Positions 11,490 through 50,364 of a stretch of DNA of 64,000 nucleotides are shown one piece after another. Below the pieces are notes generated by a model that was not told the origin of the DNA, made no database searches, and was given only the letters and a program-made list of their open reading frames with translations. A program made the position numbers and the translations under genes. This DNA comes from Ginglymostoma cirratum (lineage: Eukaryota), in contig JAHRHZ010000016.1 of NCBI GenBank assembly GCA_024137785.1, positions 33,817,339 to 33,881,338 on the forward strand. The letters run 5' to 3'. Within the stretch, counting starts at the first letter, position 1. Each line of letters starts with the position of its first letter.

Positions 11490-12140
11490 AACACTCTATC
11501 TAGGTGGCAGCAAAGGGACGACAAGTAGTTGTGGCGGCCGTAGATTTTGTGTGAAAACCAGAGCTACAAAAAAACTGCGTGCATTGCGTGGTTGTTTGTC
11601 AAATGATTGCATCAATTCATAGCACTGCACGTGGTGATTTATTTTGATCGAGCTACGTTCATGGTATTTACTGAAGCATTTCTTCTTCAACAAACGTCGT
11701 AAAATACACATCAAATAGCCCCTAAATGAAGAAACCTCCTACGTAAAATCTACCATTTTGTTCAGACGCGGCTAGAATCACGTGATGTAACACATCGTCA
11801 ACCAATGAAATCGTTCTCAGCGATTTATTTGTTTAAATTAATAAATTTTCGGCCGATAATATCTAAATGTTTGACACAATCCTGAAATAGTTTAAAATTT
11901 GCACTATCATAAAATTGACGTGGCATTTTTAGAGTGTCGTTCAAGTCACCCTAAATCTGAAGTGGTTCAGTTTATGTAGACTTTATAAGGCTCTGGCTGT
12001 GCACAATCTAATCCGGTTGTGGGGTGAAGCTCACTATAGAGGTCACGTGCTGAGTGCGTTATCACTCCTCATGCCCTCGGGGAAGGTCTGAGACAAGAGC
12101 CAATCACTACCCTTGCAGGGTATCACCTGATTCAGGTGAG
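11490..12140 (+). promoter_or_regulatory. CpG-enriched promoter-like region, candidate distal SLC7A3 promoter
   Basis: ATTGCATCA 11606-11614, TGATGTAAC 11783-11791, E-box TCACGTGA 11778-11785, CCAAT, TGACGTGG ~11916, CTCF-like 11499-11512, donor CAG|GTGAGG at 12135. Confidence 0.55.
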
Positions 12141-12860
12141 GAAGTCACCAGGCATCTGGTCTGGGCAGTAGCAGAAAGCAGAAGAAGCAGTTCCGAGACA
12201 AACTTGGATGATGTGGATGCAGCTTCTACCCAGAATGGGAAGGGCTTCTGGCTGGCCATATGAGTTCAATGTGTGAGATGAGTCAAACAAGATTCACAAC
12301 CCAATTCAGACTACTCTCACCCCACACAGTTTTTAATTCAACAGACATGAAAAAAATGTTATGCACTTATGAAAAAAGTGTTCTGTATTGGAGGCAGGAA
12401 ATGATGCTGAGTGAGATGGTTGTGATACTGACTATACTTTTCTGACAGGTTCTTGTCTTGAACAGAGATTGCTCTGTGTCAAAGCAAAGTACTGATTTCA
12501 ATATGTAAACATGAAATATGTATCAAGTATGTATTCGATACAATTTCTTTCCCTTGTTGGTCCTTCATTTATTCTATTTTGTTTCCTTCTCCAGAAGGTA
12601 ACATGGCTGGTAGGTGTAAGCATGGTAAGTCAGGAGATAGAACGTTCAAGACAGCTTATTTTGTGAAAGTGTGTAAATATAAATTGTTTTTGTTATTCTT
12701 CTGCAATAGTGTCCAGTCACCAGAGATCCTAATTCTACACTGGTATTAGATATGAGATGTTTGAGAACTTCTAAGCAAATGATAGGATCATCAAATTAAT
12801 CCAGAGTTGCAAATTGAATTTCTTTCTTCAAACCTCCTCTTGGCCAAGAATACCATAGAT

Positions 12861-12995
12861 AAAAACCGAAAAAACTATGAATGCTGTAAATCAGGAACAA
12901 AAACAGAAGTTGCTGGGAAAGTTTAGCAGGTCTGGCAGCATCTGTGAAGAAAAATCAAAGTTAACGTTTCGTGTCCGGTGACCATTCCTTGGAAG
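12861..12995 (-). mobile_element. Short Penelope-derived repeat with degenerate hammerhead
   Basis: Minus strand CCAAGGAATGGTCACCGGACACGAAACGTT followed by CAGATGCTGCCAGACCTGCT. Confidence 0.6.
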
Positions 12996-16344: not shown

Positions 16345-17200
16345 AAGTGGACATGTATGTGTGGAACCGCAAGAGATGGGCAAGATCCTCAATGAATACT
16401 TCTCCTCTGTGTTTACCGTAGAAAAGACATGGAGACTTGGGAACTTGGGGAAGTTAGTGGTGATATCTTGGGGACAGTCCATATCACAGTACATGAGGTG
16501 CTGGAAGTATTAGAATGTACGAAAGTGGATAAATCTCCTGGTCCTGACCAGATATATCCAAGAACCCTGCAAGAGGCTAGGGAAGAAATTTCAGGGGCTC
16601 TGACTGATATATTTGCATCATGGTTAGCCACGGGTGAAGTCCTGAAAGACTTGAGGGTAGCAAATGTTGTGCCCTTATTCAAGAAGGGTTGCAAAGAAAA
16701 ACCTGGGAAAAATAGACCAGTAAGCTTAACATCTGTGGGTAGATAAGTTACTTGAGAATATTCTGAGGGATAAGATCTACATGCATTTGGAAAGACAGGG
16801 TTTGATTAGGAATAATCAGCATGGCTTTGTGTGTGGGAGATTGTGCCTCACAAATTTATTAGAGTTATTTGTTGAAGTGACCAGGAAAGTTGATGAGGGC
16901 GTGGCAGTAGACATAGTTGATATGGATTTTAGTAAGGCAACATGGAATACAGGGAGAGGGAATACTGGAAGAATGCTTGTCTCTCTGGAGGCCTGTGATT
17001 GGTGATGTGCCTCAGGGATCGATGCTGGGCCCATTGCTGTTTGTTATCTATTTCAATGATTTGGATGAAAACGTACAGAGGCATGATTGGTAAGTTTGTA
17101 GATGACACTAAAATAGGCGGTATCGTGGACAGTGAGGAAGGTTATCAGAAATAGCAGCAGGATCTTGATCAGCTGGAGAAGAGGGCTGAGAAAATGGCAA
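16345..17200 (+). mobile_element. CR1 LINE RT fragment (HER1-like)
   Basis: [48 protein letters not shown]. Confidence 0.9.
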
Positions 17201-17209
17201 ACGCAGGGT

Positions 17210-17237
17210 CTGAAGAAGGGTCTAGGCCCGAAACGTC
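17210..17237 (+). ncRNA. Minimal type-I hammerhead ribozyme motif in a Penelope-derived short repeat (17201-17337)
   Basis: CTGAAGA-A-GGGT-CTAG-GCCC-GAAAC-GTC: both catalytic boxes, a 4-bp stem II, palindromic ACGT stem III and a GUC cleavage triplet. Confidence 0.7.
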
Positions 17238-18659
17238 AGCCTTCCTGCTCCTCTGATGCTGCTTGGCCTGCTGTGTTCGTCCAGCTCTACAACTTGTTAT
17301 CTCAGATTCTCCAGCATCTGCAGTTCCTACTATTTCCGAACTGCACTGTTGGCAGTAAGTTTGTCTACTGATGAAGTGGTCCCTGAATGAATTCATTTAC
17401 TCCCAGGGTCTGTGTATATTCCCTGTTTTGTCTGCATTATAACATCTGATTTTAAATTCAGTTGAGAACATACAGAACTGTATCATCAACAATGTGTAGT
17501 TTCTTTGGAGAATGCAAATTTCTTGTTATTGTTATTGCAGTATTTACCATTTTCATTTGTATTAAACATCTATGCATGATCTTGGAAGTCCTGTTAGGTA
17601 TAGTATTGAATTATTCTTAATAGAATTATAATGGAATAACAAAGAAATCAAAGAATATGTGCATTTCGACAGCACTTTTCAATCTCAGCATATTACAAAG
17701 CACTGTCGAATTGTCTATGTTATTAGAGTACTGTGATATATGCCTCTAACAATTGAGACTTGGATAAATTTGCATTTTCTTCCCCCAAGGACTATACTGA
17801 TCTAAAAGGACTACTGTGATCCTCTGATAAGCCCAGGAAACCCATATTATATGGCTGCAAAGAATTATTTTTAATCAAGAAGTTCTGAAACTCAATGAGG
17901 CATCAAGAAATTGGCATCTATTGCTTTACTCACACTTGCATGATAAATTCACATAGGAAGAGATGAATGATTGTCTACAACTACCCAGCTCAGAACTAAA
18001 TGATGACACAGACATTAAATCAGCAAGGGAATAGTATGTCAACAGTAGTCTTTGGGCTGCAAAGCTGAGAGAAGTCAAGATAGATTAATAAAAGAGGACA
18101 TCAAGAGCTCTTTTCTCCCTCTCTCAATCTCAAAAACCAACTTGGAAAAACCACTCACCAAGTTATCTGCATGCTACATGTCCCTCAAGGAAGCAGGAGA
18201 ACAGCTGAACTGTTGACACTTAGGTTTCACTCTCAGCTCAAGAACTCTAAAACTTTTAAAATGCAACTGCTTCTGTGTTCCTCTCTATGCAGACATTTCC
18301 CTACATCATCTTTTTTATTAAGCTTATTACGTGTATTATATGTTATATTATCTTCTTTTTCCTCAGGTTAAATAGGAAATAAAACTGCGCTCTTGTTCAC
18401 TCAAGGGAACCTTGAAATTGGTTCTCCTTCATTCTTGATCTGAATAACCAAGTTTTATCGGTGTGCCAGTTACAAAATAGAAATATTTGTTGCAACTGAT
18501 GAAGACAGAGTTGAAAAGAGGTAGGCAAATTGCCCTGTTTAGCTAGTCAAAACAACACAACTTGTTTGTCATATACTCAAATACATTGGTTAAAATTGTA
18601 CTCTATGTAACAACCACAAAAGCGTGATGGATTATGTCAGTTGGATGTAAGCAAAAGTT

Positions 18660-18980
18660 CTGTACTTTATTTTCAAAAATATGCTTGATTCGTAAATTAT
18701 CCATTAGTAAATACAAGTACAAAACAGGTCTGTGCAGGCTTTTTGGAAAGTACAGTGGAATTTTGACATTCCTAAGCAGAACTTCAATCCAGTTGTAACA
18801 AAAAGGCATTTCCCTAATCATGAAAGGAAACTACTTACTTCCCATTGAGGCTACAAGGCCTTAAGAGACCCTCAGATCCTCATTATATTTTGATGGAGAG
18901 ATCTTACACTGTGGTCTTTCCCACAAAACCTAACAGCAGCTGCCCAAAGCTTTAGTGCGTCCCTCAGCACATAGTGCCTG
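18660..18980 (-). mobile_element. Second, shorter L1/Tx1 3' end
   Basis: GTGGTCTTTCCCA...AGTGCGTCCCTCAGCACATAG shared with 21500-21565. Confidence 0.65.
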
Positions 18981-19374
18981 TCTGCAGTACTCAGTCGAGG
19001 TCAATTCTTTGACTAACAAATTCTCTACAAGTCTCATTTTCCAATACAATTCGTCCAATTGAAAAAGCTGGGAAAGCTTCATCCTATTTGAGGGTATGAT
19101 GAATGATTATGAATGAGGAAAGTCCCTCCCTTTAGCATTCAGTTCCACTGTTTTCATTTTACTGCTCCTAGTCATTGAGCTTTGGATCTTTTTGTTGGAA
19201 GAATATCTCGATCAGTCATAAATTTACCTTTCTCTGATTTCAACCTGTAACAACCTGTCTTGCACTTAGTTTAATTTGAAAGAATATTAGGCACCCCTTT
19301 CCTCACCTCTGCAGTCGTACTCATGATCTACAAGTTTTTAGATGTTTCTAGTTCTTCTATCTCATTGACCAGTG

Positions 19375-20950
19375 TTGGATACAGAGGGTGGTCGTAGAAG
19401 GTTGCTTTTTGGATTGCAGGCCTGTGACTTGAGGTGTGACACAAGGATCGGTGCAGGATCCACTGCTTTTTGTCATTTATACAAATGATTTGGATGTGAA
19501 TATGGGAGTTTTGGTAAGTAAGTTTGCAAATGACACCAAAACAGATGGTGTAGTGGACAGTGAAGAAGATCATCTGAGTACAACAGAATGTTGATCAGAT
19601 GGGCCAATGGGCCAAGGAATGGCAGATGGACCTTAATTTAGATAAATGCGAGGTTTTGCATTTTGGTAAGGCAAACCAGGACAGGATTTACACAGTTAAT
19701 GGTAGGGCCTAGGGAGTGTTGCCAAACAAAAAGACCTAGGGGTGCAGACGCATAGTTCCTTGAAAGTGGAGTCACAGGCACGATGGTGAAGAAGGCATTA
19801 GGCACGCTTGCCTTCAGATTAGAATAGAATATCCTTTATTTAAATAAGTTCAGTGAAAAGTTTTTACAATGGCTGCCTCTAATGGCGCCAAAAACTGAGG
19901 TACAAACCTTCGATACAAAGGGGAATAAAAGGAAAAGTAGTAGCATTACTTAGTGTCTAAAAAATAAGTTAGAAACAAAATAGTTATAACATAGTTAAAG
20001 GATTGACATTAAGTCTGGTAAAGAATTTCACATAGACGTTACGTTTCAGCACCTCAGTGAGTGCCCGCACCCTGGCTGCCCCCGCCAGGCCCCAGTCCAA
20101 TAATTGTCCCACTCTGCTCCAAGCCTTCAGTCCACTCCACGCTGGGACTCAGCTGCACCAAGGTACGTTGCACTGCTCCAGGACCCGCTTCCTGTCACGC
20201 TGTTCGAGGACTTCTAAAAAGAGAGAAAAAGAAAGAAAAAGAACAGGTAGAGCAGAGGAGCTCTGGGTGGAGCATCCTACTCTGCTGCCATCTTGCCAGA
20301 AGTGGGCGAACATTGAGTATCGGAGTTAGGATATCACTGCTACGGCTATACAGGACATTGGTTAGGCCATTTTTAGAACACTGTACAATTCTGTTCGCCT
20401 TTCTATAGGAAGGATTTTGTTAAACTTGAGATGGTGCAGAAAATATATACAAGGATGTTGCAGAGACTGAAGGGTTTGAGCTATAGGGAGAGGCTGAATA
20501 GGCTGGGGCTTAATTTTCCCCCTGGAGCATTGGAGGCTGTCGGGTGACCTAGAAGTTTATAAAATAATGAGGGGCATGGATAAGCTAAATAGCCAAAGTC
20601 TTTTCATAGAGTTGGGGAGTCCAAAACTAGAGGGCATAGGTTTAGGGGAGAAGGACCAAAGGGCAGCTTTTTCATACAGAGGTCATGTGTGTATGGAATG
20701 AGCTGCCAGAGGAAGTGGTGGAGACAGGTACAATTGCAATATTTAAAAGGCATCAGGATGGGTACTTGAGTAGGAGGGGTTCAGAGGGATATGGGTCAAA
20801 TGCTGGCAAATGGGACTAGAGATAACAAGGTGTGGAGCTGGATGAACACAGCAGGCCAAGCAGCATCATAGGAGCAGGAAAGCTTGACATTTCGGGACTA
20901 GATTTACTTAAGGTATCTTGTCGGCATGGACGAGTTGGACTAACGCTGTA
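19375..20950 (+). mobile_element. CR1 LINE 3' portion interrupted by two insertions (19817-20303 and 20821-20902)
   Basis: KFANDTK, CEVLHFG, RTLVRPFLEHC peptides; CR1 3' UTR resumes after each insert. Confidence 0.88.
19817..20303 (-). mobile_element. Unclassified ~490-bp non-coding retroposon-like insertion
   Basis: Cleanly splits a CR1; minus strand begins ACTTCTGGCAAGATGGCAG and ends AATAAAGGATATTCTATTCTAATC. Confidence 0.55.
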
Positions 20951-21249
20951 TGAGTTAAGTCGAACAAAGAATATCTCTGTTTAAAAGTCATTAGAACGTG
21001 AATAATCCAACCAGTAATTATTGTAAATATATCTAGCAAAATAGCTGTGAAATGGGACAAACGTATACTAATCTCATTAAGTGGTTATTCTGGATGAACA
21101 ATCAGGGAGCTGGAGCCCAACTGAAAGGCACTGACCTAAACCAGGTTCAAGGTATCACAATGCAAAGACAGTTAGGTAATGACTGATCATTCAGACAGGC
21201 AGAAAACAGAGTTGATGTAATGTTCATTTTCCAGCCAGTAAAATAAAGG

Positions 21250-22430
21250 TTGTTTTTTTTTTCATTTCAAAAATATACTTTATTCATAAATATATCTTTA
21301 TATACACACAGGCACCTAAACAGTTCAGTTCTGTACAGACTTAGCATATTGCAAACAAACATTGGAGTCTGACTTTCCCGAAAGTTCCAACAACGAAAAT
21401 TTTTTTACTTATTAACATATTATTTGCATATATTTGAGGCACTGGGAGGGTCTTCTAACTAAACAGACACCCTTTTTTTTTGGCAGAAAGCCCTCAGACA
21501 GTGGTCTTTCCCAACTGCTTCTTGGCAGCAGCTACCCAAGCTACAGTGCGTCCCTCAGCACATAGCCCTGGACTTTGGAATATGCCAGTCTGCAACATTC
21601 AGTCAAAGTCAACTCCTTGCTCTGGAAGGCTAAGAAGTTTCAGACCAACCAAAGAGCATCTTTCACTAAGTTGACGGTCCTTTGGGCGCAGCCAATGTTT
21701 GTCTCTCTGTGGTCTGGGGAACAGACTGTAGAGCAAAGAGTCCTGCTTTGGAGCTGCTCAGGATGAACCTCGACAAAAACCACTGCATCTTTCTCGAGAC
21801 TTCTTTTGCAAAGGCACATTCCAGAAAGACATGTGTGACAGTCTCTACCCCCTCACAGCTGCTTCAAGGACAGCGTGCAATAGCGCAGAGAGTCCAGGTT
21901 GAAGAAGGAAGTAAGCATTAACCTTTAAAGAGACATTAACTTACTGGTAATGGAGAGAGATCAACAACACAAAGGACTTTTAAATTGAACTTCACACAAT
22001 CAAGGTGAAACATCCGTCGAAACAACGAATCCCGTCCTGACAACAATGGAAGTGCTAGCCGTCACCGCTTCGCAAGGTGCCAGAAACAGATTAACGAACT
22101 GAGTACACGACTTGTGGCGGGGGGAAGGTTGGCACGTGGCAACGAATGTATATCATCTTTGAAATCGTTTGTAAGAGCTGAGAAGTTTGGTGAGGCCCCT
22201 TTGAGGTCCCTGCTTCTCCCAAAAGCTTTTGTTAATAAAACTGTGTCTGATTCACTGCAGAATTGTACGTGGTAATATTTTACCTGCAACAAGGTTACAT
22301 GAAGGATCTCACCACCAGCCAAGCGATGTCTTGGTGCTCATTACCTCAACACCAGAATGTTGCATTCTGCCTCAGGAAACAGGATCCACCCAATCCTTTT
22401 CCCGCAGGGTCTTGAGTACAAAGATTAGTA
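21250..22430 (-). mobile_element. L1/Tx1-clade LINE 3' fragment
   Basis: ARCP*SSCEGVETVTHVFLECAFAKEV zinc knuckle; KDALW..TECCRLAYSKVQGYVLRDAL..GKTTV*; AATAAA and poly(A) near 21253-21285. Confidence 0.8.
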
Positions 22431-22839
22431 AGGTACTAAGCTTTCATTATCGTGAAGAAAATGATAGACCTCAATCAATAGACAAGACACCAAGTCAACT
22501 GGAGGGTAAGGACTGGCCATGTGAATATGACTGCTGATCTCTGCTCTTTGCTTTGCATCACAATTTTTGTGCTCATTTTCAAAAACTTAAAATTTATGAA
22601 GGTTATGAAAACAGTGTCAAACCCATATTGTTTTGCAGCTAATCTGACTTGGAAGACACTTTTCATTAGCTGTCCCAATTTAGCCTGTAATTGTAATTGA
22701 CCAAAGTCTTCCAATTGAATTAAAGCAAGCACCATATCTTTGCAGTCAATTACAAACCATTATAACGTAGAAAACAGCAGCCACACAGCAGTGATCCACA
22801 AAAGCAATGTGATACTGATCGGATAATCTGCTTACAGTA

Positions 22840-22935
22840 ATAGAAATTGCTGGAGAAATTCAGCAGGTCTGGCAGTATTTATGGACAGAAATCAGAGTCA
22901 ATGTTTTGAGTCCAATGACCCTTCTTCATAACTAC
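22840..22935 (-). mobile_element. Short Penelope-derived repeat with degenerate hammerhead
   Basis: Minus strand ATGAAGA-A-GGGTC-ATTG-GACTC-AAAAC-ATT-GACTC. Confidence 0.55.
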
Positions 22936-23619
22936 TCAGAATCAGTGCTTTTTTTAAAAATCTGTTTTACAGTGTTGACTGAGGGATAAGCATTGCCCAG
23001 AACACCAGGGAGAATTTTCACATTTCATTGAAATTGTGCTACAGAATAATTTGAATTTTGGAATGGTTGTATCATTCAGGCCATTCTGCTCATTATGCCC
23101 ATGCCAACTGTGAAAACAGCTCAGCTAATCACATACCCTTTTTTGCTCACAGGCATTAATTTTTTTTCAGGTAACTTAGACAAAGACACCCAAGCTGTAT
23201 GCTCTGTAATTCTCATTCTACATCAGGATTTATTTCCAAATCACTACTTTAAGGCACTCCTAAAATACTGCCTCTTGTGATGCCGTGATTGTGTCCTTAC
23301 CTCTGAACCAGACAGCCTGGGTTCAAATACCAGAGGTGTATTATGTTATGTCTGAACAGTTTGATTAAAAACCCACTACTTTGATCAAGTAGTCACACAG
23401 AATGCCTGGATATATTAACGCACTCATCCCACAAATAGCATGCAATGAAATATATAATTGTTCTGTGTGTGTGTATATTATATATAAAATTGTTCATTTC
23501 TATGAAATAAATGAGAATGCACCTTAATTTACAAATGCTTCAAAAGTATTTTAATTGTAAAAAAGCTTTACATATGCAACCCAATTAGATAGCGTCCATA
23601 ATAAAAATGCTTCCTCACA

Positions 23620-25805
23620 TCCTTATTATAAAAATTCCAGTTTCTCCATTACATCTGTTCTGATGATATTACATAGCATGCCAATGCTTTTGACATGTCT
23701 TCTTTTCTCCTCAATAAAGAATTGCCACTGAGCAAGGTTAATAAGGTCCTCCCACTTCATGCACCTGTTCTCACCTCTTACTCTTTCTCCTAGAACCATA
23801 AGGTTCCTGTCCTCACCTTCCACATAACTAACCTCTATATTCAGGGCATCTTCTGTTATTTTCCCCATACCCAATGAAATTCATCACCAAATATCTTTCC
23901 CACCATCCCCTTTTCCCTATCTTTAGGGATCATTCTTAGGTGACATGAGAGTGACAGCCCTTGACAGCAAGGCCACATTCAACCGAGTGTGGCATAAAGG
24001 AACCCTAGCAAAACTGGAATCAATGGGTATCAGGTGGAAAACGCTCCACTAGTTGGAGCTATATCTGGCACATGTCTGGTTGTTGGAGATCTGTCATCTC
24101 AGCTCTAAGACATCTCTGCAGGAGTTCATCAGGGAAGTGTCCTAGGTCCAACCATCTTCAGCTGCTTCATCAAATGACTTTCCCTCCACCCTAAGGTCAA
24201 AGGTGGGGATGTTCCCTAATGATCGCACAATGTTCAGTACCGTTCATGACTCTTCAGTACTGAAGCAGTCTAAGTTCAAATGCAACAAGATCTGGACAAT
24301 ATCCAGGCTTGGGCTGACAAATGACAAGTAATGTTCACACCATACAAAAGCAGGACAATGGCCATCACCAATAAGAGACTATCTAACCACCATCCCTTGA
24401 CATTCATTGGTGTTACTATCACTGTATCCCCTACTATCAACATTTAGGGGTTATCATTGACCAGAAACTCAACTGGATTCATCACATAAACACAGTGGCT
24501 ACAAGGGCAAGTCAGATGCTAGGAATACTGCAGCCAGTAACTCACCTCCTGACTCCCCAAAGCCTGTTCATCGTCTACAAGGCATAAGTCGGGAGTGTCA
24601 TGGAATACTCCTCATTTGCCCAGATGGGTGCAGCTCCAAACACATTTGCTTGACACTATCCGGGACAAAATAGCCCACTTGATTGGCACCACATTCACAA
24701 ACATCACTCCCTTCACCACTGTCACTCAGTAGTACTTACTGCTGCTATCTACAAGATGCACTGCAAAAATCAGACAGCACCTTCCCAACCCACAACCATT
24801 TCTATCCAGTAGGACAAGGGCAGCAGATACACAGGAAAACCAGCATCTACAAGTTTCCCTCCAAGTCATTCACTGTTCTGACTTGGAAATATATCATCAT
24901 TCCTTCACTGTTGCCGGGTCAAAATCCTGGAAATCCCTCCCTAAGGGCATTGTTGGTCAACCCGCAGCACGTGGACTGTAGTGATTCAAAAAGGTACTAT
25001 CTTTTCGAGGTCAACTAGGGACAGGCAGTAAATGCTGGCTAGCCAGTGACACTCATTTCCCATGAGTGAATTTTAAAAAATTCCTTCCACAACACCAGAC
25101 ACCGGTCCTCAGTCACCTCTTCCCATGGCACCAATCTGTGCAAACATAGGTAATGCACCTTTCACATTCTCCCCTCTCGTTGATTTACTTGTACTTCTAT
25201 AAATTTAGTATACTTTATTCTCTGCTGATCATGTGGTCACTTCTATACTGAGGAGACCATAGCAGAGTGAGTTACAGAACGCTTCCGTTCTGTCTGCAAG
25301 AACAATTTCCTGAACTTCTAGTTATGTGTCAATTTAATTCTCCACCTTGCTTCCATGCTGGCCTCTCTGTCGACGGCCTTCGATGCTGTTCCAGTCAAAC
25401 TCACAAGCTGAAAGAACAATGCCTTATCTTTTAACTCAGCACTCTACAGCTTTTTGGATTTAACATTAAATCCAAGAACTTTAGACCATAACCTCCATCT
25501 CCATTTTGTTCTGTTATTCTTTTGTTCTTCCGTTTTGTTTTGATGGTTTGGTCCTTGCTTTCTTAATATTAAATTCAAACGGATTTTATGCATCAATTAT
25601 GTTTTCACAAAACATCTTTTTTCTTTATTGTATACACTATTGTTCTTTTTGGCTGTTGCATCTTTTGTAATTTAACCTTCCCTGGTTTCCATCTTTACAC
25701 AAGTCTTTTTCTTTGGTTTTCATGCCCATCCTTGCTTCACTGGGTTAAAAAATCTTTCATATTTCTCTTCAGTTCTAATTAAAGGGCATTGACTAGAAAT
25801 GTCGA
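23620..25805 (+). mobile_element. Decayed Penelope-like retroelement (RT C-terminus, GIY-YIG endonuclease, 3' repeat), interrupted by a CR1-like LINE
   Basis: FQFLHYICSDDIT*HANAFDMSSFLLNKELP (~23635); FTCTSINLVYFILC*SCGHFYTEET (~25184, GIY-YIG); TLQLFGFNIKSKNFRP* (~25441); degenerate hammerhead at 25775-25803. Confidence 0.75.
23940..25080 (+). mobile_element. 5'-truncated CR1-clade LINE with intact 3' end, nested in the Penelope remnant
   Basis: Decayed RT motifs (VTALDSKATFNRVWHKG; QGSVLGP; MEYSS); 3' tail AAATGCTGGCTAGCCAGTGACACTCATTTCCCATGAGTGAATTTTAAAAAA. Confidence 0.8.
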
Positions 25806-27999: not shown

Positions 28000-29500
28000 A
28001 GGAAATGTGGGCGTCAATGGGATGTCGATAGCCATGACGTGCTTTCTTCACTCGGAAGGAGGGGTCTCAGTGTTCACAGAGAGACAGGACAAGGCGGATT
28101 CGAGTCTACTCCGGAGATTGTCCCTGGCTACTTCAACCTAGGAAACCCAGTGAGTTACTTACCGGCCGCCGAAATGCGGATTATTCCTTGTTAATTTTTG
28201 TCTTGACGCTGGAGTCATGTTAACCAAAATCATAGTTAGTTATAAGACATTATTATTTTATCAAACTGGATGAAACGTGGTTTACCGGCTACTTGTAAAT
28301 AGGTAACACAATATTTAAAACCGGACACCGATTACAGATCGACCCGGGAGCAGAAACGCGCGGTTTGATCTCTTAAAAATCTGAGGATCTTCCCGTTTTC
28401 GGAGATCGCCGTGTGTTTGGCGCCTACATGTTGTTTTATTGTTTCGGTAAACGTGTTTCTACATTGTTCCATCGGTTCAAGAAATCCGGTTTATATTAAA
28501 AACATTTGGATGACCCGGGAGACTTAAAGAGGTTTCAACTTAAGACGCACTATCAGTCAAATTTTAAGAAAAGTAGGTGGCGAGACCGGAGTGGAATTGA
28601 AATTCACGCGCTGCGCCGGCTGGCCGTGTAGTACTAACATTTTACACGTAACAGACACATAAAATCCAATTTGGGTCACTTTTACCGGCATGAAGAACGA
28701 CAATTCCCCGGTCCGGAGAAGGGATCGTAAACCGTGTGAGAGGTTTGTTGATGGTGTGTGGTGGGAGCGGGGGAGGGGACGGCCATCGATGTGAACATTG
28801 CATCAGCCACCAGCTCAAACTTTGGCCCACTTTCCGCGTTGCCACGAGCAACCAACCGTCTGTCCATGTGGTCTCGCGCAAACCCCACTACCCGCCTTCA
28901 GTCCTCATAAACTCCCGGGAAAAAAACCTAATTAATTCTTCATTTCGCATCTTTCCAACTAAAACCCGAATATGCGTATGTGTGTGAGTTTTACAGACTG
29001 CGGGAAGGGGCAGGACATGACTGTTCTAGGACATGGGCCACTAAAAGGAAATCAAACCAAAAAAAACCCTTAAAAATAAAGAACTGTGGTTGCTGGAAAT
29101 CAGAAGTTGTTGGAAAAACTTCACATTTGTGTGGAAAAAGAGCAGAGTTCACGTTTCAGTGACCCTTCACGTTTAGCTTTCCAATGAGATGATTCTTTAA
29201 ACCAGGCGGATGCCAAAAATATGACGAGAATAGCAAACGTCGAATTGTTCATTCTGTTCCAACTTTTTTTTTAAAAAAATTAGTCCCACTGGAAAGGAAA
29301 CAGTGTTGGGTCCATCTGGGGGGAAACCGTTCAAAAACAACCTGCGGATGATGTCGTTTGTGCAAAATTGGCCCGAGTTTCCTGTTCCGAGTGTGCACTT
29401 ATTTTTTTTAAATGTTCTGTGCAAACCGCAACAGAAACTTACTGGTTTGTGCGACCGGATAACAGCGTTTATGACAAGTTACGCTTTCAGCAAATGTCAC
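28000..29500. promoter_or_regulatory. CpG island-like region, probable promoter / non-coding first exon of SLC7A3
   Basis: Much higher CpG density than the background, little repeat content; AACATTGCATCA at 28794-28805; donor-like CA|GTGAGT at 28149. Confidence 0.6.
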
Positions 29501-29903
29501 CCTGTTGGATTATTTAGTCTCTGTTAAAAACTGGCATAAGTCGAGCAGAATTCAGAGTAAGCAGCTAGACCAGATAGTGTGCATACGAGTGTTTCTTATG
29601 TATCAAATTTAAAGTTTGAAGCCTTGCTCATTAGGCATGACGTCTTCAAAACAAAACAGTTGTGGAAACTTTCCATTTTTAAGGCAAATTGTTTCCAATA
29701 TAAAGGTACAGTGAAAATACATTAAAAGCATCTCCAGTCTCAATGACGAGGTTTTTTTAAAAAACCATGACGAAATAAAAATATGACTTCGATTCTGCTG
29801 CACTGTTACTGGAGGATGGAAACCATTTAATATTTTGCAGAATCAATTGAAAGGATTAAACAAATCGGAATGTGAACAGGCATAACGTGCCTCTATCTTT
29901 TCC

Positions 29904-30436
29904 GAGATAGTGGGAACTGCCGATGCTGGGGAATCTGAGATTACAAGGTGTAGNNNNNNNNNNNNNNNNNNNNNNNNNNNNNNNNNNNNNNNNNNNNNNN
30001 NNNNNNNNNNNNNNNNNNNNNNNNNNNNNNNNNNNNNNNNNNNNNNNNNNNNNNNNNNNNNNNNNNNNNNNNNNNNNNNNNNNNNNNNNNNNNNNNNNNN
30101 NNNNNNNNNNNNNNNNNNNNNNNNNNNNNNNNNNNNNNNNNNNNNNNNNNNNNNNNNNNNNNNNNNNNNNNNNNNNNNNNNNNNNNNNNNNNNNNNNNNN
30201 NNNNNNNNNNNNNNNNNNNNNNNNNNNNNNNNNNNNNNNNNNNNNNNNNNNNNNNNNNNNNNNNNNNNNNNNNNNNNNNNNNNNNNNNNNNNNNNNNNNN
30301 NNNNNNNNNNNNNNNNNNNNNNNNNNNNNNNNNNNNNNNNNNNNNNNNNNNNNAGGAAGGGTCCAGACCCGAAACGTCAGCTTTCCTGCTCTTCTGATGC
30401 TGCTTGGCCTGCTGTGTTCATCCAGCGCTACACCTT
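29904..30436. mobile_element. Penelope-type element termini in inverted orientation flanking the assembly gap
   Basis: 29904-29953 matches the reverse complement of the tail of the 17201-17337 repeat; 30354-30436 is the same repeat forward, with AGGAAGGGTCCAGACCCGAAACGTC. Confidence 0.65.
29954..30353. other. Assembly gap (400 N)
   Basis: Run of N. Confidence 1.
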
Positions 30437-31344
30437 CTAATCCCTTCATCTTTTCCAGCAGGTTTTGACATAGAAATGTTGTTGCTATATCATAGGTTTT
30501 CAGGAATTTCCAGGTCTATATTCTCCATATGTTTATAAATGTAAAGGTAGCAAATGGTTTAGGGAGAGTTTCACAGTTCAATTGATATGAATGTATGGCT
30601 TCGAGTGTGGGGTGTAGCAAACCACAAACTGGAGGAGAATTAAGAATTTGGGCTTGTATCAGCAGTTTGCTTAATGATGCGGCTCACTGGGGTAGTGCAT
30701 TGAAATAAAGACAGCTGTTAAAATGGCATATGCTATTTATACCATGTTTATTTAAACTTTGCTTATTGTGTTGCTTCTCTAAGCTAACAATTATTCTGTT
30801 CTCTGATTTTTTTTTACCTTAATGGATTGCATAAGGATGAATTTTTGAAAACTATTAAATTTAAATCACTGTTCCCAATACGTTGCACACATTTCAAGCT
30901 GCTGATAATCAGATCTTGGTGTTCTCGGATATGATTTATCCCATTTAATGAAGCAACAATGTAAGAACAATCTGTTCTGAGCCTCCAAGTGAATAAGAAA
31001 TATAACATGTACCCCGAGAGCTTTAGATATATACAGCTTGTTATAATCTATATTTTTTTTTTAATTCTGCCTGGAGAATAAATTTGGTATTTGATTTGGT
31101 TTGCTTTTGCACAAAATATTTAAATTAATTCCAATACTAATTCCATTTGAGATAGGTGAGATTATGTATCTGTCATTTGATTGGAGTAAATACTTGATCA
31201 GTTTGTTGCATGAGTACTATGGGTTACTGTCACATGTCAGATTAGAAACTCCCTACAATATTTCTATGCCTATCACCATTAAAAACAATGTTGGACAAAA
31301 AAATCCACATTTTTCTGCCCCTGCCTATGCTGTCAAGCCCTTAG

Positions 31345-41305: not shown

Positions 41306-43087
41306 TGAATATTAAAAACAAAAGCTAATTTTGAGATGGGTCAGAAAATGGGACTCACAGTTTTAGATTCATAGGGCAGAATATTCCAGGCCTGCTCAGA
41401 GCTCCTAGAAGGGTAGTGTAGGAACTTGATTGGATGGGAGACAAAAATTCAATTTCCCAGTGTCTGGTTTAGGGTTTACTTTTGAGTGCTCAAACTTTTT
41501 GGTGAGGGGGTGGGTCAAGGTTCAGGAACATGTTTTGCATTCACTCGCATTCTGACTGCAATCTTGTTAGTCAAAGTGGGAAATACGTGTTCACAAATCA
41601 GAGTCCATAAATAAAGTGCATACCTACCTGGGTACTTTTTTTTTCCTTTAAGCTTCAGTGACTATAAACTTCTTCAGTAACTTGTCTCCTTCATAACAAA
41701 GCCGTTTCTTTATGCAAATGCTCAGAAGTATTATGAGTTAAGCCTCAATGGATCATTCAGCTCATGACAATATCTTGTCTCGCTTGTGGTTCTTAAATGC
41801 TCACAGTGTAAAAGGTAAAGCCTGGCAACGCGAGGCACCCACGCTATCTGATGCAAGCAGATCTGTCAAAGGCGGACAAGGGAGCACTGAACTGGAAAGG
41901 AGGCTTTACGTAGGGGGATCAACAGCAAATATACACAGGAAACATGGACAGCAATTATAGTGAATACATTTAAAGGGTATTGTTATTGGGGACACAGAAG
42001 GATTCAAAGGAATGAAATGAGCAAAGCGGGTTACCGATGAACAGGTTCATTAAAAATATTTATCACTGACATGTAGATAGGTGATGGACATTGACTCTAG
42101 AAAAATAAACATTTAGCTTCAGTTCCCACTTTCCAGAGGTTAGGATAGCAGTGAATGAGAGACTCCGCACTGTTTGCATTGCTACGTATGATCATATGAG
42201 TTGTCTGCATTGATCATCCTCCCCTCAAGCTAATCCAGAAGGAAAATTTACATCGTCAGAAGTCTTAACAGATTGTACGAGACCACAGGACTGTTGTATG
42301 AAGTGCTGTATTTGTTTCAGGTCTACTGCTGTACAAAAGCTTGATACCAATGTGCTGAAAGTGACTTCAGTGCCCTTTAATCTCACCTTTCCCAGTGCCA
42401 ATCTCCAGATATCTCCAATTTTCTAGGAATCCTGCACATTGTTTCTATTTAAATAATGATTATCCTGATAGGGTAATTATTTTTTTCCTGTACTGTTTCT
42501 ACATGCTCAGCACTGTAGAAGCTCTGCACTATCAAAGGAACAACTGTCTAAGGATTGATTTAATAACCAACACATCCATAACCAATTTACTCTGGTTGTA
42601 ATATGTACAATCTATAATAGCGGTTCAATGTTCCCTCTCAGCTATATGAGCATGCAGCAGCTCCGATGTTTCTCACGTGGCGATCAACGTCAGCACCTCA
42701 ATCGTGGCTTTGACTTCTGGGTCTGGAAGTCGCAGCCATGCATGGGTCTCAGAGGCTGCACGGCCTGTAAGAAAATTAGAGGGAACGCTACAGTGCTTCC
42801 CAACCTTTTCAGTATCACGGCATACTTCAATTAGACACAGTTCTACAGCACGTCGCTCTTTTTAGCCAAATTCAGTGGTTATAAATGTTGCATTTTATTT
42901 GCATTTACTGTGATTTAGAGAAGTTTGCAACATTGTGCATATGATAGGCTAAAGATGGATCAAAAGCATTAAAGCTTCAAATCCACCGACAAAAGTACCA
43001 TGCTGTTTGTGTCCTTTTCTTGAAAGTCATTCTCGTGGAACTCCCATCACCTTCGTCAGGAGAGTAGCATTAAGAAACATTAACGAC

Positions 43088-43192
43088 AGGAACAAAAACA
43101 AAGTTGCTGGAAAAGCTCAGCAGGTTTAGCAGCATTTGTGAATAAAAAGTCAGAGTTAACGTTTTGGGTCTGGTGACCCTTCCTTAGAACTC
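43088..43192 (-). mobile_element. Short Penelope-derived repeat with degenerate hammerhead
   Basis: Minus strand GAGTT-CTAAGGA-A-GGGTC-ACCA-GACCC-AAAAC-GTT-AACTC; stems I and II are perfect, with two G>A changes in the core. Confidence 0.65.
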
Positions 43193-48204: not shown

Positions 48205-48307
48205 CATGATGCACTTTGAAATGTTACAACGTGTTATGGATGCAGTGTAAGTTTTAAACATTTTACAATGATTTTATTTTTCTTTTAAAATACAGCACTT
48301 CCATCAA

Positions 48308-48677
48308 ATGCCAAGTAAGATAATGGAAAGCTTTGGAAAGAAGTTGATTCGTAGACGAAATGTTGACTGCAACACAGATGAAACCCGGTTTGTCAGATGC
48401 CTGACAACAATAGATCTAATTGCACTGGGGGTCGGCAGTACTCTTGGGGCAGGTGTGTATGTTTTAGCAGGTGAAGTAGCCAGGGACAAGGCAGGTCCTG
48501 CTATTGTCCTTTGTTTCTTGATCTCTGCTCTTGCCTCAGTACTTGCTGGCCTGTGCTATGCTGAGTTTGGTGCCAGAGTTCCCAAGACTGGATCTGCTTA
48601 CCTCTACAGCTACGTGACTGTGGGTGAAATATGGGCTTTTATAACCGGCTGGAATTTAATCTTATCATACATGTTGG
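48308..48677 (+). CDS. SLC7A3: Cationic amino acid transporter 3, coding exon 1 (exon begins 48296)
   Basis: MPSK...[28 protein letters not shown]...ELWAF-like [15 protein letters not shown]; 370 nt CDS; acceptor TACAG|, donor G|GTAAGT. DKAGP and linkage to YIPF6 favour CAT-3 over CAT-1/2. Confidence 0.93.
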
Positions 48678-50364
48678 GTAAGTTTCAGTTTAATTTTATC
48701 TTGCTTTTCAAGTTTGTGAAAGGGATAAAAAGTAGTTTTTGTGTTTCTTTTTGATTAAATTTCATTGCACTTTTGTTATTTGCTACTAGAAATAGTTTGA
48801 AGCAGTAACACTAAACTACTTAGGGCTTTTTCCCCAGTCATCTACTGTATCTTCAGAAACTACATAGATAGTAGGTTATGCTAGTTAATCAGAGGTCCTG
48901 CCACAAATGCAATTTAGTGATCAGGAGAACTCCTGGAAAACTCTGCACTGAGGTACTCATAGTGGACGTGTCATGTTTGATTTATTAAAATTCTAGAGTA
49001 CAAATGAAAGAAGAGCAGCAAGCTGTCCCAACATCCTCGCCAATATTTATCATTTAGTGAACACCACTAAAATCAAATAAACTAATCATGTTGGACTTGT
49101 TGTACAGAAATTAGCAGCTTGTTTTAAAAAAAAAACTAATCAAGTATTGTACTTAATTGATTACGAGACATATCGGACATCTTCATGATTTGAAGTGCAT
49201 TTTAAAGAAAACAAGCATTTATAATCAAATGAGTGGAAATGCAAACACAATTTTAGGGTGTATACGTGGGGAAGTTGACCATTAAGACTCCAGGTGTATG
49301 ATCAATTTGTACTTACATTTGGAGTACTATCTATAATTTGAATCACTCCTGCAGTGGAGATATCCTGGCAGTGTAGAAGAGAGCAGCTATACTAATGTCA
49401 GTACTTGGTGCCCTGAACTACAGAGAAACTGTAGAAAATGGCAATATTCATACTGTAGAAGTTCTGCATTTTTTGAGAATGTATTACATTTTTCATAGTT
49501 CTGACGGTTTATGATAAATTGTTTGACATTACACGCACTTTGGGCTATATTATACCCTCCTGCACTGACAGGTTAAAAGATGGGAAAGACTTGTAAAATT
49601 CAACAGGTGGCCTATCCACCATCCAAAACACTTGCGCTTGCCTCCATCCTAATCTTATGAGTGGCAGAGTTATCATTAGGCAGTGAGATGCTTAAGGTGG
49701 TAATTAATATTAATTTAGGAGATCCTTTCATTGACAGGACTTAACCAGCAGAAGAAGAGGCTTATGCCAAGCAAGCAGGAAATTGTAGAGAAACATGTAG
49801 GGAAACTAGCCCTAAATACTTACTAAGTTCTGATCCAGTGCTGAATGGCTGTGTACGATAACGGCGGTGATCATGTCTACTGCTAATGACTAGACAGCTG
49901 CAGACTTCTAGCTGGTAGCTGAAACAGAATTTCTTGTTCTTTAGGGGTGGAAGTATGGTCAACTGGTTGATTACTTAATGTGGAGCAGCTGTCCCAAGTG
50001 TCCGTGTATCTGTACTCTTCCCCACCCAAACTTCATAGTTAGGGTACAAAGGAGCAGTGTTTACAGTGCCTAGTAAAGTCAAGTCATGAGGGTTAGGTAC
50101 TCAAGAAGGGAATAGGTGTACAGACAGTTTAGATTTAACTACATTGTACAGAGGACAAGCATGTGTGACTAATTGCCCAAGAAAATCATGGAGGCAAATC
50201 CTTTGAATAGGCTAAACCTGGCTGGGTAGTTTGTGAAAGAAATGATTGAGAGATACCAGATTCGGAATTTTTGACCCGGGTCATCTGTTTCTATTGGTAT
50301 GTTTGTGATACTAAAGATTCTACACACAAAATATTGTACATGTTTGGAACTCACTTCCATAAAT

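Follow-up and report, generated by a model that had tools for sequence, protein, structure and literature searches.

A minimal hammerhead motif in the genome of the shark Ginglymostoma cirratum lies in a repeat that is very probably the solo pLTR of a Penelope-like retrotransposon

Minimal hammerhead ribozymes (min-HHR) have been described in the pLTRs of metazoan Penelope-like elements (PLEs), including Xena, Poseidon and Neptune of fishes, and their activity in vitro is low (PMC4209133). Helix I of the PLE minimal hammerhead is usually 3 to 5 bp long. A CX2-5CxxC linker between the reverse transcriptase (RT) and the endonuclease (EN) marks the Neptune and Nematis elements, and the role of the hammerhead in PLEs is regarded as an open question (PMC8557442). 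A tail of 30 to 40 nt has been described for Penelope elements (PMC8557442, PMC3846280, PMC11167929), and the Penelope of D. virilis has an internal promoter (PMC2377424). For PAc, a Poseidon element of Anolis, work in vitro revealed internal priming, a tail, insertion without cleavage and a protein-assisted cleavage, the protein being required by the hammerhead; a transcription start at the hammerhead is not mapped in the sections covered (PMC11167929). Animal non-LTR retrozymes have been reported from one chondrichthyan genome (bioRxiv 10.64898/2026.07.22.740005). There is no shark entry among the supplementary rows of PMC4209133 that were examined, and a search of the open-access literature found nothing specific on PLE hammerheads of sharks or other cartilaginous fishes or on a start site at the hammerhead.

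The window, i.e., the whole stretch of 64,000 nt of the G. cirratum assembly analyzed here, contains a minimal type-I hammerhead motif on its plus strand at 17210-17237. The string read there by an earlier note, made from the letters alone, is found exactly: AGGGT (17205-17209), CTGAAGA (17210-17216), an extra A (17217), a stem II of 4 bp made of GGGT and GCCC flanking CTAG (17218-17229), GAAA (17230-17233), a palindromic ACGT (17233-17236), C17 at 17237, after which the cut is predicted, and AGCCT (17238-17242). The motif fits the min-HHR consensus (PMC4209133), with which it shares the core boxes, CUGANGA plus one extra nucleotide after A9, the G10.1-C11.1 pair, GAAA, the palindromic 15.2-16.2 pair, an NUH site and the lack of a helix III, besides the location in a pLTR and the prevalence of solo truncated copies. 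It differs from the published set in a stem II of 4 bp, the helices there being typically longer, and in a native stem I of only 2 bp, as in D. virilis (PMC4209133). The two boxes by themselves match 6 times in the window, no more than expected by chance (shuffle mean 5.78). A complete minimal descriptor, comprising the boxes, a stem II of at least 4 bp, the palindromic pair and UH, matched 23 times in stretches of the genome picked blind (451,854 called bases), against 0 in each of 20 dinucleotide shuffles. The motif is present and is not a product of chance. A scan of Rfam at E<=5 gave no match to a hammerhead family, and the window monomer folds no better than its shuffles (z -0.40); in its minimum free energy structure CUGA is paired with a UCAG that spans the cut site. 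Any self-cleavage by the window hammerhead would probably be weak, dimeric or assisted by protein.

The earlier note had placed this Penelope-type hammerhead in an abundant repeat, and this holds: a DNA search of the same genome listed 2737 candidates at first look, and among those scored, the 39 full matches other than the window copy were 96-98% identical. The stretch 17209-17338 is very probably what a Penelope-like retrotransposon, autonomous and of the Neptune type, left here as a solo pLTR with its tail. It bears the minimal hammerhead motif known from such elements and is likely to be a dead stub of an insertion. It consists of a pLTR of subfamily A running from the 5' hot spot described below to a first 3' end point (17209-17303, plus strand) and of an optional 3' extension of ~35 nt, the Penelope tail (17304-17338, plus strand). 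The identification as a solo pLTR derives from its match to pLTRs found behind EN/RT ORFs at four loci (L002, L009, L025 and L077), to which 124-126 of about 128 nt are identical (97-98%). In three of 30 loci (L002, L009 and L025), the pLTR is preceded by ~1 kb of shared sequence, which in translation is the end of a GIY-YIG endonuclease. L025 has an inverted RT piece as well, with 19,609 candidates in the genome search. Pfam found RVT_1 and GIY-YIG above cut-off in two of four ORFs (L067 and L070) and both below cut-off in L079, with no match for the L077 ORF piece or for short fragments. The L067 ORF has a DKG motif and a CX4CxxC linker at residue 662. The parent family thus has the features of an EN+ PLE, i.e., RT and C-terminal GIY-YIG in one ORF, pLTRs, an inverted 5' copy and a tail of 30-40 nt. 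In near-full-length copies picked by their ORF start, the pLTR and tail are followed by ~36 nt and then by the ATG. This full-length layout was observed in the sister subfamily B only, the pLTR of which is ~85% identical, and no full-length master of subfamily A was found. The pLTRs of a related second Penelope family (D) follow RT/EN ORFs of ~55-65% amino acid identity.

The described Neptune and Nematis EN+ PLEs have RT, the CX2-5CxxC linker, C-terminal GIY-YIG and DKG in common with the shark family, together with partial tandems, inverted 5' copy, a 30-40 bp tail and solo pLTRs (PMC8557442, PMC3846280); the position of the ATG here, ~36 nt past the tail and outside the pLTR, is a difference. 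The putative Neptune-type label follows the match in the linker. One locus, L079, was rejected as a full-length copy, being two separate insertions. At L068 (G000:C20, about 2396890-2396930), 6-7 telomeric CCCTAA repeats link an inverted pLTR to the ORF start, possibly by telomerase healing at the insertion; telomeric repeats before the ORF were rejected as an Athena/Coprina-type trait of the family, since L068 was the only case among 30 ORF-start copies. Five ORF-start copies (L174-L176, L179 and L180) carry a second direct pLTR 600-770 nt behind the first, giving recurrent internally deleted units. In the L067 and L068 ORFs, the N-terminal domain is separated from the RT by tandem repeats of a 27-nt unit (ADADxTPPT), the number of which varies. 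A GATGCTG/CAGCATC helix, formed in the window by 17252-17262 with 17311-17321, flanks the first 3' end point on both sides and is conserved in A, B and D; it is a candidate RT-binding stem.

The window holds several other copies. A second pLTR of the same family, shorter and without tail, lies on the minus strand at 20819-20902 (90% identity over 84 nt), and a head-to-head pair of the same family surrounds a 400-N stretch at 29900-30460. Family D is represented by pLTRs at 12892-12989, 22844-22933 and 43086-43191, all on the minus strand. To survey the genome at large, we took 130 stretches blind, each of 10 kb and placed at a round coordinate on a large contig, which is not a strict random draw; 52 stretches were all N, and 750,826 bases were called. 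The sample contained 135 A/B/C fragments in 95 clusters, 55 nearest to A, and 57 fragments of family D. Extrapolation to the 4.36-Gb assembly (N counted) gives a rough figure of ~4.5 x 10^5 fragments. The 3' ends of 133 copies are bimodal, with 61 at +90 to +102 and 61 at +121 to +135 (element positions are numbered with C3 as +1), ~34 nt apart. Inverted head-to-head pairs are frequent (20 in the first 90 blind stretches). The core was intact in 36 of the 82 blind copies that cover it, so an intact core at the window copy is to be expected and is nothing special. There are other hammerhead-like repeats in this genome. On the minus strand of L116, at about 2526 of that strand, a different minimal hammerhead with stems I and II of 5 bp each and a palindromic ACGU sits in an unrelated insert of ~150 nt within a LINE, and the minus strand of L036 has, at about 2230 of that strand, a third family of hammerhead-like repeats, starting with CTGATGAAGGAGCA.

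Directly in front of the insertion, a LINE RT fragment on the plus strand (16396-17201) comes to its end; it has RT-like ORFs and repeats elsewhere in the window and is presumably CR1/L2-like. The LINE homology ends at 17199-17201, and no clear target-site duplication was seen around the window copy (best 5 nt). Between both lies a junction filler (17202-17208, plus strand) ending in AGGG, and it is this filler that supplied the 5' arm of a stem I that had been read with one mismatch. That reading could not be kept. In best-hit loci, which were selected by the query, the AGGG arm was found at 13 of 36 core sites, versus none of 56 blind-sampled sites; it is no part of the element but a by-product of the junction. 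The filler probably arose when RT slipped at the 5' end and copied a few nucleotides of the element, GAAGGG, once more, and its length differs among copies, as is expected of a short re-copy. The native sequence upstream of the core is CCCCATTT, and in native context stem I (55 parsed of 59) has 2 bp in 18 cases, 3 bp in 13 and 4 bp in 24. By group, the subfamily of the window copy has 2 bp, while B has 3-4 bp and D has 4 bp, one pair changing by structure from U.G in B to G-C in D. Over 60 aligned cores, the covariation score was 0.170 versus 0.169 in shuffles, 214 of 500 of which scored as high, the rows having been pattern-selected, nearly invariant and with the stem I of family B out of register, a set too uniform to speak for or against the fold.

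As to the host locus, the element had been thought to lie in sense orientation within an SLC7A3 intron, provided that transcription started near 12 kb. At that place, 12019-12325 on the plus strand, there is instead a nuclear RNase P RNA gene (202 bits in the Rfam scan). This gene is ~3 kb from the ATG (about 9046) of a gene on the minus strand that presumably is YIPF6-like (one of its exons had no Pfam match). Pfam gave no name to this upstream gene or to the LINE fragment. The first coding exon of the amino acid permease, labeled SLC7A3 by the earlier note, is 48296-48680. In one RNA contig, this exon is preceded by 80 unplaced nt. From the same RNA run, the loose end of a second contig matches about 28090-28120, just upstream of a splice donor (28150), where the DNA is rich in CpG. 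The first exon of the transporter probably lies at about 28070-28149. The element would then be ~11 kb upstream of it and probably in intergenic DNA, a further upstream exon being possible. That this copy is a co-opted, active ribozyme regulating the SLC7A transcript is extremely improbable. Its core is intact and, with the junction AGGG, the dimer as drawn folds at -14.1 kcal/mol versus -1.9 with the native arm; however, alternative dimer folds are far more stable (-43.0 kcal/mol), there is no tandem partner at the locus, and the intact core is shared with the many blind copies counted above.

The repeat had also been taken for a non-autonomous, retrozyme-like family. It would then be a SINE-like unit derived from the pLTR that spreads by its own short, self-cleaved circular RNA, and there are reasons to consider it: animal retrozymes have been proposed to derive from pLTRs (bioRxiv 10.64898/2026.07.22.740005), and solo pLTR sequence far exceeds ORF sequence in number, with an RNA-seq depth of about 17,000-24,000 over the pLTR versus 270-960 over the ORF start. 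A type-I HHR, the relation to pLTRs and the non-coding nature are indeed common to both. However, active retrozymes are defined by a tandem arrangement of two or more HHR units (bioRxiv 10.64898/2026.07.22.740005), and the family here is dispersed and contiguous with an autonomous ORF. Among 50 core sites, there was one same-strand pair at less than 1 kb, its members coming from two different families, and there is no tandem at the window locus. Besides, the window copy is nearly identical to the ORF-linked pLTRs, and the 5' ends in the blind sample grade into the ORF and are not placed at the cut site. Without tandem units, and with a parent that encodes its own RT and GIY-YIG, the window element is not a retrozyme, and the spread of the family in such a way looks very unlikely.

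The 5' ends of the copies offer a clue to the parent element. Of 120 unmasked 5' ends in A/B/C, 81 fall within -40 to +60, and 34 of these 81 lie between -7 and 0, with the mode at -2 (p 6e-17 versus uniform). Family D has the same hot spot and the same mode (23 of 50, p 6e-13). In both, this is just before the CUGA box and away from the cut site, which suggests that uncleaved RNA was the template. No enrichment of 5' ends within 1 nt of the cut was found among those at +13 to +60 (1 of 21 in A/B/C, p 0.74; 1 of 17 in D, p 0.67), a sample size compatible with a share of a few percent. In 30 copies picked by ORF start, the 5' pLTR begins at -5 to -2 in 11, much further upstream in 4 and at +29, the cut site, in 1. 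PolyA RNA-seq mapped on a full-length 5' end has its joints clustered at the hot spot; no pile-up of read starts or ends was seen anywhere in this fragmented library with many read-through copies (run X22 had only 18 reads), nor a footprint at the cut site, and in such a library this says little for or against a start there. Both families have at the hot spot an initiator-like motif (CCATTT and TCAGTT), with its A at -3. We infer that the -3 A is the transcription start and that RT runs off uncleaved RNA there. In the same element, the hot spot might instead mark where RT stalls or switches template, at the folded hammerhead or at the small TTCT-GA-AGAA hairpin, rather than the start of the RNA. 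Many inverted partners join at the hot spot, and a shoulder of ends at +1 to +12 (21 of 120) falls inside hairpins, as stalling would have it. However, family D, with GGA for AGA, a weaker hairpin and no ATT, keeps its mode at -2, both families share the initiator-like motif, and copies that span the whole ORF also end at the hot spot. We regard stalling as rather unlikely, though a serious contender.

Under the reading we favor, that of a transcription start at the hot spot, transcription of the parent element would begin at an initiator, the start being the A that precedes C3 by four bases. RT would prime internally at the tail, near the RNA 5' end, and copy ~130 nt to the 5' end of the uncleaved RNA, the shortest product being a copy of the window type; a slip of RT at that end would add AGGG. 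Cleavage by the hammerhead would be no more than weak, in a dimer or aided by protein, and would be dispensable for making such copies. With PAc, this scheme has in common two RT start points that define the tail, an uncleaved RNA template and the lack of RNA-seq ends at the cut site, while PAc belongs to the Poseidon clade and its ORF starts inside the hammerhead (PMC11167929). We propose, tentatively and at somewhat less than even chances, that the hammerhead is the first structure of the transcript, the RNA starting at the A that opens stem I, and that the stubs of 95 and 130 nt, which number in the hundreds of thousands, arose by integration of "strong-stop" cDNAs primed internally at the tail of uncleaved RNA.

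The window ribozyme is of a published kind, the minimal hammerheads of Penelope pLTRs, and one of very many copies. The value of the finding is mechanistic and modest. A vertebrate family that is young, has a very high copy number and ends at fixed points on both the 5' and the 3' side provides support in vivo for an internal-priming model known so far in vitro, and its fixed 5' end point amounts to a precise prediction of the start site of a Penelope element. If the proposal were true, the genome of this shark would be a fossil record of the Penelope start site, of both priming sites and of a productive template that is hardly ever cleaved, and the ribozyme would be a decapping brake and not a processing step.
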